From: Octopus sinensis
Taxonomy: Eukaryota
Length of the DNA stretch: 64,000 bases
Direction: 5' to 3'
Assembly (NCBI RefSeq): GCF_006345805.1
Contig: NC_043007.1
Coordinates: forward strand, 5,828,001 to 5,892,000
The notes under the pieces were generated by a model. It was not told the DNA's origin, did no database searches, and was given only the letters and a program-made list of their open reading frames with translations. The translations under genes and the position numbers were made by a program. Within the stretch, counting starts at the first letter, position 1; every line of letters begins with the position of its first letter. This document shows, one piece after another, positions 1,426-63,806 of the stretch.

Positions 1426-1533
1426 GCAAATGTAACTCTGCAAGCACATAAATATATGTTGCTCATGGTTGATCCGGACGAATATCCGCATTCTGATATG
1501 GTGTATTCGCATTGGATAAAGACACATATCACC
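1426..1533 (+). CDS. PEBP4-like paralog A, coding exon 2 (ANVTLQAHKYMLLMVDPDEYPHSDMVYSHWIKTHIT); exon 1 is upstream of the window
   Basis: ttttattag acceptor, gtaagta donor, 108 nt, phase 0/0. Encodes the PEBP signature YxLLMVDPD...HW. Homologous exons at 19273, 41190 and 56490. Confidence 0.92.
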
Positions 1534-2465
1534 GTAAGTATAATAGATATTTTTTGGTAACTGTATTATTTTTTTATGCAGATATGTGCATTCGTTACAC
1601 GCAACTGTCAATGTTAGCACCAATATGCGTATATAATTTCACAAATTGCAACGCACCGCGCACACACATACACACACTTACACACACATACACACACTTG
1701 CACACATGCATACACGCAAAGATGCATACACATGCATACAGATGCACATATTCATACACACAAATACAAGCAAATACACACATACATACCAATAATAGCG
1801 AAGAGATTCAAGAAATTGTTTAACTGATAAATCATTACTGAATTTTGAGAAATTTCACTGAAACCTGCGCTAAAACATTATGAAAGAAATCAATATTTCT
1901 GTAATTTACCGGTTTCAACACTTTTAAAACATATTCTTTAATAATGATGATATATAAACTGCTCTGGTTGGTTGAAAATGCTTTAAAATGTGTTGTTGTT
2001 GGTGGTTCAGGGGAAGAGTTAAATAAATATTTACAGTAATGGGGAGGCAATATGTTCGATAATGTTTTCGTTCAATTATTAACAGTAATGTATATAGGAA
2101 TTGAAATTGATAAAATCTGTGTGTCATGTGCAGTGGCTAGTTTTAAATGAATGCATCTTTTCATTATCCGACATTGTGCACGTGTGTGGGTGTGTGTGTG
2201 TGCTTGTATGTGAGTGTATGTGTGTGTAGTAAAATAGTAATACGTGTAAGATCTATGATATATTCAAGTGCGTATATAAATATATATATAAATATATTTA
2301 TGCTATATTATATATATATATATGTGCTATATATATGCTATATATATATATATATTATATATATATTATATATATATATATATATATAATATATATATAT
2401 ATATATATATATATATATATATAATATATATATAATATCACATATATGTATGTGCGTATATAGGC

Positions 2466-2550
2466 ATAGGCGTGGCTGCTTGGTAAGAAACTAGCTTCCT
2501 AACCACAAGGTTCCGTGTTCAGTCCCATTGCGTGACAACTTGAGCAAGCT
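2466..2550 (+). mobile_element. tRNA-derived SINE head (a similar one lies at about 2948-3070)
   Basis: A-box-like gtggctgcttggtaag and B-box-like gtgttcagtccc / gggttcaatccc. Confidence 0.55.
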
Positions 2551-2825
2551 TTAGGACAAGGCTCCAACACCGATGCCAACTACTTTGATTTCAGCAGGGT
2601 TGATGATAAGATTCTCTTAAAAAACTATCGAACATTGGTGTCTGTGGAATGATGCTACGATGGATGAAGTATTTCCTGACTGACAGAACTTGACACGTTG
2701 TAGTCGAAGGAGTAAAATCAAGCCCAGCCAAAATTAGTAGTGGCATTCCACATGGCACTGTGTTGGACCCACTTCTTTTCATCATCTACATCAATGACAT
2801 CACTGATATCATCAAGCACAGCATT
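2550..2825 (+). mobile_element. CR1/L2-type LINE RT fragment
   Basis: Translates to ...SGIPHGTVLDPLLFIIYINDI, a degenerate GVPQGSVLGPLLF..YINDL motif. Confidence 0.7.
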
Positions 2826-3489
2826 GTTAGTTGTTGTGTTGCTCGTGTAAATATTAAAATCAGAGGTCATCTCGCCGTAAACATCGCATGTTTTTGTTAA
2901 GCAAATTGTATCAGGGAGTATATTATTCAAACTGTATCTCTCTTTTATAGGCGTATCTCTGTGGTTGAGTAGCATGCTTTCCAACCATGTCGCCTTGGGT
3001 TCAATCCCACTGTGCGGCGCGATGGGCAATTCTCCTTCATTAGAGCTCCGAACCGACCAAAGCCTTGTGTATTATATAATTGCTAATACTGTATTGATAT
3101 CTAAAATAACACATACAACTCAATTATTATTTTCATACAATAAACAAACAGAAGTTTGTGTATGAGATTGATCTTTTATCTCCTTCAATTATTATATGCT
3201 TTTACTTATAACTTACCCACATACAGGGGAAGTAAATCTCTCTATATAATAACACTTTGAATATGGCCCTCGAGAAAGAGTAAAAGTAATTACCCGATCA
3301 ATGACGGGTATTACAGCTACTACTTGAATAAATGAAGATACGTTATTGAATAAATATTACTATTGTGGGTAGAACAACAACAACAAAAACATTTCTATAT
3401 GATTACGTAAGTATATGTTTGTGTGTGTGCATATTTATGTATGGAAGCATGTAAGTATCAATGTATTCTTAATGAAATTATAATTTCAG

Positions 3490-60109: not shown

Positions 60110-61435
60110 ATATTATTATTATTATTATTATTATTACTTTATTTTTCTTCTTTCAAATTTGCTTCCATCTCTTGCCGAGTGTCTTCCCGACTCCTAGGGC
60201 AAAGAAACTCATAGTATACATTGGTAGGCCATTACACCAAACTCAATAGTTCGTTTTAAGTTAAATTAAAATACATGAGCAGCAACAGTTCTCACATCGA
60301 CAATGCTCTTCGCAATACGTGTGATGCACCAGTTAAGACAATCTTTTGCACTTCTTGCAGGGATGGTAAGCCAGGGATCATTCTCATATAATTTTCGGTT
60401 CCCTTCTTGATCATTCCTAGTGCTCCTACGATCACTGGTATTGTAACCGCCTTGAGATGCCACGTTTTCTCAATTTCAATGAGTAGGTCTTTATTGTTTT
60501 GGTCTTTCACAACAATATCTGGTTTATTGGCCTTGATGGTTCGGTCTGTATGTACTGGAAAGTCCCACAGAATGGTTACATTTTCTCCTTCAGTTACAGC
60601 CTCAGGGTGGTGATTATACCACTTGTCGGCAGTTTTGATATTGTAATGCCGACTTATTAGCCAGTGGAGATATTGGCCAACTCTGTCATGTCTTAATTTA
60701 TACTCCACTGGAGCTAAGACTTTACATCCAGAGATTAGGTGGTCCACTGTTTCAATCATGTCGTTGCAGAATCGGCATTTTGGGTCTGCTCCATTTTTCA
60801 TCACATTGGCCTGGTAGTTCCGGGTTAATAGGCTTTGATCTTGAGCAGTCAGGATGAAACCTTCGCTCTCTGCTTTTAGCCCTGAGCTCCGTAGCCACTG
60901 ATGGGTTTGCTTCTGGTCAACATCAGCTTGTTTGCTGCGGGTCACATATTTGCCGTGCAGAGGTTTCTCCTCCCACCTATCAGCCAATTGCTCGTGCGCT
61001 TTTTTCGTTGCCATCATTTTCACCTTCTTTGCAACAATAACTGCCGTACTTCCCTCGGGTTGTTCTGTTTGGGTATCCTGCACGAGATCAATAGCAAATT
61101 TTTTGCTTTCCTTTATAATAGAATGAAGCTTCTTTCGTCTCTCGTGATTTTCCACGAGCTTTAGCATCCAGTCATTCGGCATTTCGAGATATTTGGCCAG
61201 TCCAATTGTGGTTGTTTTGTAAGCTAGTTCAAATTGGATCAGGCCTCGACCTCCTTGAGCTCTGGGAAGGTAAAGGCGATCTACATCTGCCTTTGGGTGG
61301 TGCATCCTATTACAACTCAGCAGCTTGCGTATTTTCCTATCTATATTCTTTACTTCACTCCTATTCCAGTTCAACACATTGTAGCTATAAGTAACAACTG
61401 GAACTGCTAAGGAATTTATAGCTAACACCTTGTTC
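60110..61435 (-). mobile_element. R4/Dong-like non-LTR retrotransposon 3' portion (RT C-terminus, CCHC knuckle, RLE); its 3' end is also duplicated at about 59045-59175
   Basis: 378-aa ORF 60292-61428 (RLYLPRAQGGRGL, CRFC...ETVDHLISGC, RHDRV, NKPDIVV) followed by a (TAA)n tail. Confidence 0.92.
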
Positions 61436-62547
61436 AGATTTCAGGACTGCACGAACTCTCCTATAACATTCCTTGCATGAACTCTCCTATAACATTCCTT
61501 ATTATTATTATTATTATTATTATTATTATTATATTATTATTATTATTATTATTATTATTATTTATTATTATTATTATTATTATTATTATTATTATTATTA
61601 TTATTATTATTATTTATATATATATATATATATATATATATATATATATATATATATATAGCGATCGATTCAAGATGTTTCGAAATAATTGCTGTGATTA
61701 ATAATTCTCGAATATTCCATCTTCCATCTTTCATCTGTGATATAATATATAGATATATATAGTAAATATAAAACACAAAAAACTCAACAACGCTTTCTTT
61801 CATATTAATTGTACTTCGAGCAGAGTTCTTTCGTCACACTTCTGTAATCTCATCAGTGGTCCCTTGCTTTCTTCTTGCTCTTTTGTGTCGCTCCATCTTA
61901 ACGACCTGCCATTTTGTATTCCTGTTGTATGTGTCTTTAATTCGCATGTGTATATCCCTGTGTATGTCTAGGTTCACTAAGTGTGTGTGGGAGGCAGCGT
62001 GTATCGAACCTGCATTATCAGTATCCCCTGTTTATTCACGTTCGTTTAATTTAATTTTATTTTATTTATTTATTTGTTTTTATCTACTTACTTTCTCATT
62101 TCTTTTTTTATTTGCATTTATCTAATTCAATTTAATTTATTATATTTTGTTTATGTATATAATTATTTGGGCCTTGAGAAACACCGGCGGTTTCCTGAAC
62201 CCGCATCTGTTTCTAGTCTATATAAACGACATTTCAGGCGTAATAAAGGACAGCAAAGTGAAAATATTCGCCGACAACTCTAAGCTCCATAAACTTATCA
62301 ACGGAGAAGACCAAACTGAATTCCAGTCTGATCTACATGCTGGACGGCAATGAGCAGACAAAAACAAAATGCAACTAAACGAGAGATAATCTGAGATTAT
62401 GCACTTTGGAAGAATTACTATGCTAAAACAACCATATTATCTTCCTACAGGTGACCCGCTCACAGCGTATGATAATATCAGAGACCGAGGAGTGACTGTT
62501 GAAATCAATCTCATATATATATATATATATATATATATATATATATA

Positions 62548-63571
62548 TTGAGATCTGGGGACTGTGGTGGCCAGATAAGAATTTCAACTTCACTAGAATG
62601 TTCATTGTGTCATTCAGTAAGAACTTTAGCTGTGTGAATTGATGCATTATCGTCCTGTCCTGAAAGTTTGCGTTCGCATCTAGAAACTTCTCTGAAGCCA
62701 TAGAATGAATTTGATCAGATAAAATGCTTAAATAGTCTTGAGTATTAATTCTGCCTTGAAGGGAAACCATTAGGCCGGCAGATTTCCAAGATAGAGCCCC
62801 GTCCCAGGTCATCAGAAATCTTCCTCCATATTTAACTGTTCGAAGATGGCAGTTTGGGTCAAATGATTCTTTTGGCTGTCTCCACATGTCTACCCGGTTG
62901 GTGGGCGGAAATAAGGTAAAGGATGATTCGTCGGAGAAAGTAACATTTTTCCACTGTTCTAGGGATCAATTCTGTAGGTTTTTACTCCACTCTAAACACT
63001 TTGCAACATTTGTTTTTGAAAGTAGTGGTTTATTGGTTGTAGACCTGGCGTGAAATCCGGCTTTCTGCTGCTCCTGGCGAGCAGTTTTTGTAGAAACAGG
63101 GTCCTCGAGGCGGTCATTAAGCTCGGCAGTAATTTTGAGAGCTGTGCTTTTGTGAGCTTTTCTGACAATTCGCGGAACATTAAGAAAGTCTGAAAGTTTT
63201 GGTTTTCTCCTGGTGTTTTGTTACGGCGAGGATGTTTTTTTCCTCTTTCTCAAAGGCTGTCATTACTTACGAGGCAGTAATTCTTGAGACATCAAACATT
63301 TCGGCTGCTTTCGTTATGCTAGCGCCTGCCATGTAGGCACCAACAATTTGACCTCTTTGAAAGTCCGATACATCTGTCATTTTAATGAATTTCAATTACC
63401 TTTCTCTGATGAAATCTGAAAAGAAACAGCAATTTTAGCAAAAAATATTAAGCAACACTAATAATAAATAAAAAAAACATAAATATAAAGAAGACTTTGA
63501 CGGTTTTACAGATATTTCAAAGTTATGATGCAATGATGCTAGGTTTTTCCACTATTTTGTCCTACACCTGT
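62548..63571 (-). mobile_element. Tc1-like transposon remnant (paralog D intron 2)
   Basis: Near-identical to 42097-43088. Confidence 0.85.
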
Positions 63572-63754
63572 ATATGTACAAGCCTAGATAAGTAACTAAA
63601 AGCATGAGAATACATGGATAAAAGGTACGAATCTACTAATACATACATAGAAACATAAATGCATGCATAAAGCATACATACATACATACATACATACATA
63701 TAATACATAAATATATTTCATAATATATATATACATATATTATACTAATTTCAG

Positions 63755-63806
63755 CGCTCAGAGCTGCAACAAAGTGGCGTAACACCAGCATCACGCGACT
63801 CAGTAC
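63755..63806 (+). CDS. PEBP4-like paralog D, exon 3 (RSELQQSGVTPASRDSV+C); last exon expected beyond the window
   Basis: aatttcag acceptor and gtaagta donor, 52 nt (one extra codon, frame preserved). Confidence 0.87.

Follow-up and report, generated by a model that had tools for sequence, protein, structure and literature searches.

We analysed a stretch of 64,000 nt from Octopus sinensis (contig NC_043007.1, positions 5,828,001 to 5,892,000 of the forward strand; hereafter the window), which carries on its plus strand four copies, A to D, of one four-exon gene related to the phosphatidylethanolamine-binding proteins (PEBPs). They belong to an array of nine PEBP-fold genes in which the mature domain has changed at more than the neutral rate. 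The encoded proteins are likely exported and held at the cell surface by a glycosylphosphatidylinositol (GPI) anchor, and would there engage an external partner that varies. We put the probability of this reading at about 60%.

The window copies were located by self-comparison and a motif scan, followed by splice-site-anchored models. We found them at the places given by a first-pass annotation of the same sequence, co-oriented as it had described, with exons of 195, 108, 49-52 and ~293 nt, AG/GT exon ends (GT-AG introns) and phases 0, 0 and 1. Their parts are the following (window positions unless a contig is named):

Outside the window, G000:C11:5825684-5825878: copy A, exon 1
1426..1533, plus strand: copy A, exon 2, with NVT sequon, DPD motif and xHW (Pfam PBP E=0.005, below the cut-off)
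3490..3538, plus strand: copy A, exon 3 (49 nt, phase 0-1)
8085..8361, plus strand: copy A, exon 4, with a shift near 8270 and an in-frame stop at 8294-8296 (Pfam PBP E=0.0014)
12018..12212, plus strand: copy B, exon 1 (predicted signal peptide, two Cys)
19273..19380, plus strand: copy B, exon 2
26037..26085, plus strand: copy B, exon 3
29697..29992, plus strand: copy B, exon 4, with an internal TAA at 29738-29740
36191..36385, plus strand: copy C, coding part of exon 1 (predicted signal peptide ~residues 1-24, Cys31, Cys47); junction to exon 2 bridged
41190..41297, plus strand: copy C, exon 2 (NAS sequon; HPE in place of DPD)
43244..43292, plus strand: copy C, exon 3
45413..45705, plus strand: copy C, exon 4 (second half of the PEBP core, linker, tail and stop)
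45622..45705, plus strand: predicted GPI signal of copy C by our own rule (omega Ser188, Thr, Ala, 7-residue polar spacer, 17 uncharged and mostly hydrophobic residues, stop)
47039..47233, plus strand: copy D, exon 1
56490..56597, plus strand: copy D, exon 2
63755..63806, plus strand: copy D, exon 3 (52 nt)
Outside the window, G000:C11:5897997-5898289: copy D, exon 4

Inside the window only copy C is both whole and open. Its spliced product is the 214-residue protein that had been foreseen, with two mature cysteines (Cys31, Cys47) and, at Asn67, a sequon. As expected, this site reads NAS in copies C and D and NVT in copy A; B lacks a sequon there. Copy D, with exon 4 outside the window, is open as well and encodes 215 residues. 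Two of the four window copies are disrupted as assembled, which the first-pass annotation does not mention. In copy A a frame shift near 8270 moves the ASTAS tail into another frame, so that the protein stops at 187 residues without a tail, and copy B has its TAA at codon 132 and no ASTAS motif. From its sequence, copy B is likely a pseudogene.

The array had been expected to leave the window at both edges, and it does: exon 1 of A lies 2.3 kb before the window, and exon 4 of D lies 6 kb after it and is followed by five more copies. Searching the genome with exon 4 of copy C gave 10 matches, nine on contig C11, on which the window lies, and one on C8. By tblastn over 384 kb around the window we found nine copies spread over 210 kb (5.826-6.035 Mb of C11) and no further copies in the rest of that interval. 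Seven of them (A-G) are on the plus strand and two (H and I) on the minus strand. The reading frame is open through to the tail in six of the nine copies (C, D, E, G, H and I; 207-215 residues), while exon 1 of copy F has a one-base gap. Four further paralogues share the exon plan, three on C8 (K, L, M) and one on C9 (J); the total of 13 genes is a lower bound, as the genome search scores best candidates only.

Copy C is a real spliced gene. We aligned contigs of four public runs (X1, X4, X5 and X6) to window positions 36000-46100, a junction check that had been proposed with the first-pass annotation, and observed that contigs of X1, X4 and X6, which come from two studies, skip all three predicted introns exactly (GT..AG). 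All three joints are bridged in three of the four runs, and one X1 contig spans exons 2, 3 and 4 without mismatch; in the genome-sized run X5 these joints are absent. Among the loose contig ends, some correspond to exon 1 of A and H and others to exon 4 of F/G; a variant of exon 2 fits D/E. A joint from 41288 to 45413 in run X4 (CA..AG) is not taken as exon skipping but as the transcript of a paralogue whose exon 3 is divergent. We also rejected an intronless retrocopy as the origin of the bridged joints, since X5 lacks such joints and every locus that the exon 4 search of the genome returned bears introns.

By profile and by modelled fold, the array proteins are assigned to the PEBP family (PF01161). 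The Pfam PBP profile matches two of seven single window exons, both of copy A and below the cut-off, and no exon of B, C or D; K-type proteins (P0001, E=3e-13) and Argonauta proteins exceed the cut-off. Against a profile of non-octopod PEBPs the mature regions of all 10 modelled proteins score 21-61 bits (copy C 30.4), compared with at most 5.2 bits for 500 shuffles. The AlphaFold model of K (P0006; predicted local distance difference test, pLDDT, 77.8) matches PEBP structures with E ~1e-8, and for that of the tailed O. vulgaris fragment P0007 (pLDDT 83.0) the top matches are PEBP-family proteins only, with a probability of 1.0 and E 2e-3 or weaker. Matches of these two models, which represent relatives and not copy C itself, include RKIP, FT, TFL1, CEN, Tm16 and mL38. 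Pfam, the non-octopod profile and the predicted structures of the relatives thus agree with the PEBP core that had been read in spliced copy C.

In the mature alignment 36 of 144 columns are invariant, and structural Cys, Trp and Pro positions are kept. The ligand pocket differs among the copies. In RKIP it includes Asp70, His86, His118 and Tyr120, according to a passage of PMC8539980. When these positions are assigned by motif spacing, K, A and I retain all four residues, C, D and G have substitutions at three of the four (His for Asp, Asn or Ser for His, Phe for Tyr), and E and H are mixed. Other PEBP genes with different exon borders lie at C11:30.13 Mb, C2:27.43 Mb and C5:0.255 Mb; the one on C11, a divergent PEBP gene at G000:C11:30126681-30126950 on the plus strand, is the best Pfam PBP match of the genome.

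The mature domain has diverged faster than neutral. For 149 mature codons of the six open copies, the ratio of non-synonymous to synonymous change (omega or dN/dS) is 1.85, and omega=1 is rejected with a doubled log-likelihood difference (2dlnL) of 14.5 (F3X4) or 10.0 (F1X4). A counting method gives a dN/dS of 1.45 for the same domain (bootstrap 1.10-1.91), with values above 1 in 15 of 15 pairs. The mean nucleotide identity of the nine copies, calculated from 36 non-independent pairs, reaches 95% in the signal peptide and in the sequence before the ATG and 88-94% in the intron flanks; for the mature portions of exons 1, 2 and 4 it falls to 83%, 73% and 72%, below the non-coding flanks (88-95%). 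Split into four blocks by exon, omega is 2.6, 1.3, 1.8 and 1.6, above 1 in each block. The idea of a cell-surface repertoire, put forward in the first-pass annotation, is strengthened in part, namely by the dN/dS above 1 and the replaced pocket residues.

The copies also share sequence in patches. In intron 3, the ~500-650 bases before exon 4 (window ~7420-8084, 29000-29696 and 44760-45412) are 93-99% identical in eight copies and 63-65% identical to H. This block is far more alike than exon 4 itself, perhaps because it was recently converted or is under constraint. F and G are 99% identical in exon 4 (G000:C11:5938120-5938409 and 5956778-5957067) and 77% in exon 2, and B and I are 98-99% identical in exon 1 and 66% in exon 2. 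Such exon-level mosaicism reaches even copies on opposite strands.

Both ends of the proteins look like targeting signals. The hydrophobic N-terminus claimed earlier is present in all six open copies, in which a basic residue precedes a hydrophobic 9-mer (positions 11-19; Kyte-Doolittle 2.94); all six also have the two mature cysteines and the sequon at Asn67, and residues 1-30 are disordered in the model of K. We predict that the N-terminal ~24 residues are cleaved as a signal peptide, that Asn67 is glycosylated and that Cys31 and Cys47 form a disulfide. In copy C the last 26 residues are predicted to be exchanged for a GPI anchor at Ser188. A passage of PMC5054108 describes the layout of a GPI signal as a linker, a small-residue omega site, a spacer of ~7 residues and a hydrophobic tail reaching the C-terminus. 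Under our own rule built on this layout, C, D, E, G, H and I pass together with J (7 of 10 tailed proteins), none of five tail-less proteins passes and shuffled tails pass in 0.5-6% of cases; the GPI-signal layout that had been noticed in the tail is accordingly found in all six open array copies. A small-small-Ala triplet precedes the spacer in each of the 10 aligned tailed proteins, and the tails of J, L, M and Argonauta are otherwise highly divergent.

The tail could be something else in proteins that otherwise behave as proposed, namely a C-terminal transmembrane or amphipathic helix, or a segment clipped off to leave a soluble protein. We consider this unlikely, in spite of the AlphaFold model of P0007, in which the tail forms a single helix (residues 110-133, modest confidence), of a 19-residue hydropathy of just 0.9-1.7 in the open copies and of the failure of L, M and P0011 under the GPI rule. 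In the six open array copies the hydrophobic stretch is not followed by charged or cytoplasmic residues, and the triplet and 7-residue spacer keep a position 26-27 residues before the C-terminus in C-I, J and L, which argues against these alternatives.

For the origin of these putative surface proteins we suggest the following course. A secreted PEBP like paralogue K may have gained the tail through an extension of exon 4, and the tailed gene would have multiplied via unequal crossing-over and conversion, with some copies decaying into pseudogenes. A partner that itself varies would drive selection for new binding surfaces. At the cell surface the proteins would form a diverse set of binders. 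As partner we would name foreign molecules at an epithelial surface, such as microbial or prey-derived lipids or proteases; this is a guess, and we hold it at slightly worse than even odds. Gamete surface proteins and dissolved chemosensory cues rank below foreign molecules, and each of the two seems a rather improbable partner. A stronger version, in which octopods have made the PEBP fold a GPI-anchored, positively selected set of variable surface receptors or decoys, each with a re-built pocket, for the recognition of microbes, prey molecules or mates, is speculative, and we doubt that it holds in full; if it did, this would be a variable recognition family on a fold to which no such role has been known to belong.

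The products might also be GPI-anchored surface proteins of gametes or the reproductive tract, diversified by sperm-egg or mate recognition, which would be a minority outcome in our estimate. A dN/dS above 1 together with conserved targeting ends is also typical of reproductive proteins, but the diversification observed here is among paralogues of one genome, and the fragment known of its O. vulgaris orthologue hardly differs from copy H, which indicates low species divergence at H. In a sperm-proteome paper PEBP4 is named 12 times (PMC12070448). Decay of a dosage-driven duplication under relaxed selection, with introns kept alike by conversion and no new specificities, is quite improbable: it would fit the three disrupted copies, the pocket motifs gone in C, D and G and the mosaic exon trees, but it predicts an omega near 1, which is rejected for the mature domain, and six of nine frames are open despite exon differences of up to 40% in an array lineage that has an Argonauta member.

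Several points weigh against the view of exported, GPI-anchored and diversifying proteins. Taken by exon, omega is significant in exon 1 only (2dlnL 5.5; 0.7, 1.6 and 3.2 in the others), the exon trees conflict, so that mosaicism may inflate the pooled omega test, and the omega of the ends (signal and tail), 0.72, is not significantly below 1. The GPI call comes from a home-made rule and not from a trained predictor or an experiment, and three of the 10 tailed proteins fail it, L and M through excess charges and Argonauta P0011 through a polar extension past the hydrophobic stretch. Three of nine copies (A, B and F) are disrupted as assembled. The whole-gene junction test covers copy C, one of nine copies; of 24 runs, eight contain the stretch and none is on record as RNA, and 16 added runs contain almost none of its sequence words, which speaks neither for nor against expression in any tissue. 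The class of the partner is guesswork.

The paralogues bear on the origin of the tail. K ends immediately after the PEBP core and has no tail, J, L and M have hydrophobic tails, and both forms, tail-less (P0012) and tailed (P0011), occur in Argonauta hians. Because a tail-less paralogue and a tailed Argonauta homologue exist, the tail appears to have arisen within or before the octopods. In a tree of 16 proteins, with midpoint root only and with B and F excluded, the 11 tailed-type rows cluster (95/93) apart from K, the K orthologues and two outgroups; Argonauta P0011 joins the C11 copies (96/98), but its branch is long and its placement therefore unsure. In the model of L used in the tree, the profile and the GPI-rule tests, exon 1 exceeds its proper length by three bases and so adds one residue, which leaves the tail and the C11 tests unaffected. 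K corresponds to the database protein P0006, labelled Octopus vulgaris / O. sinensis, and an O. bimaculoides relative of K carries the NCBI name PEBP4. Paralogue K (G000:C8:41425576-41418151, minus strand) has intron 1 three codons further on than the C11 copies, with exons of 207 + 99 nt compared with 195 + 108 nt.

Current annotation misrepresents the array. The four database proteins found for it (P0004, P0005, P0007 and P0009) are exon chimeras or fragments: P0004 fuses exon 1 of A with exons 2-3 of B, P0005 mixes exons of A and B, and P0007 and P0009 lack exon 1. A word-indexed protein search for longer proteins with exon 4 of C gave none among 72 candidates, which results from the chimeric annotation and not from absence of the gene. 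A profile search of 1.84 billion representatives returned 10 hits, six of them octopod, one a mite PEBP, one a secreted PEBP without name and two repeat artefacts (P0008 and P0010, dropped as repeat proteins without PBP domain). No squid or cuttlefish protein is among these 10 hits, which does not show absence. An octopus origin is supported, where the first-pass annotation had inferred a lineage-specific, probably cephalopod, family.

PEBPs are conserved, mostly cytosolic regulators with few secreted forms, among them vertebrate PEBP4, nematode Ov16 and Drosophila A5. K, A and I share with PEBP/RKIP (PF01161) the fold and the order of motifs (DPD, xHW, GxHRY). In contrast to RKIP, the array adds a predicted signal peptide, a Cys pair, a sequon and a hydrophobic tail and has the pocket replaced in C, D and G, and K stops after the last strand, without the C-terminal helix region of RKIP. 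With vertebrate PEBP4 and other secreted PEBPs the array has the predicted signal peptide and PEBP domain in common; it differs from them in the GPI-like tail, the tandem arrangement and the dN/dS above 1. When K was compared with Atlas clusters, chordate PEBP4 came third-best at 0.89, which is a lead only, with arthropod secreted PEBPs and plant MFT at 0.90 each. PEBP4 orthology is not established, because the latter two score as well with K; the sequence searches turned up no chordate PEBP4. Conotoxins and snake-venom PLA2 likewise have a conserved signal peptide and conserved introns around a hypervariable mature region. They differ from the array in fold and in the predicted membrane anchor of the latter, which shows no sign of venom-gland expression or toxicity.

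Tandem expansion of PEBPs, one part of the combination that the first-pass annotation did not know as described, has a precedent in the whitefly Bemisia tabaci, with 202 PEBP genes, 127 of them in five clusters (PMC5157087; also cited in PMC10510153). The whitefly genes are a separate lineage, and neither GPI anchoring nor positive selection is mentioned in the text examined (PMC5157087). In open-access full text, supplements aside, we found no relevant paper on octopus PEBPs, the LOC identifiers or GPI-anchored PEBPs. We regard the array as a genuine variant form of secreted PEBP that merits further study. If the proteins are surface-anchored and under diversifying selection, the PEBP fold would have been reused as a variable binding scaffold, and octopus biology would gain a candidate recognition family concealed by current annotation. 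The tail-less K and the pocket-intact and pocket-replaced copies provide built-in controls on binding by secreted PEBPs.

Remains of mobile elements also lie in the window. At window 19941-21283 (plus strand), adjoining reverse-transcriptase and GIY-YIG frames (RVT_1 weak, GIY-YIG over the cut-off) indicate a broken Penelope-like retroelement, and Penelope-related pieces occur near 39960-40440 and 55210-55700, directly before exon 2 of C and D. Pieces of Tc1/mariner-type transposases lie at 57078-58101 (plus strand) and at 25127-25599, 42159-42497 and 62423-63220 (all minus strand). Pfam HTH_Tnp_Tc3_2 and DDE_3 match those at 57078-58101 and 25127-25599, and the minus-strand pieces are mutually similar and located in intron 2 of B, C and D. 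Probable remains of non-LTR (long terminal repeat) retrotransposons or DNA transposons were found at 60292-61440 (minus strand), 15071-16027 (plus strand), 52235-53961 (minus strand) and 9888-10671, the first alone having a Pfam match (zf-RVT, weak). Between B and C, window 31200-32500 is occupied by a long imperfect (TACA)n-type microsatellite, which yields spurious long open frames.

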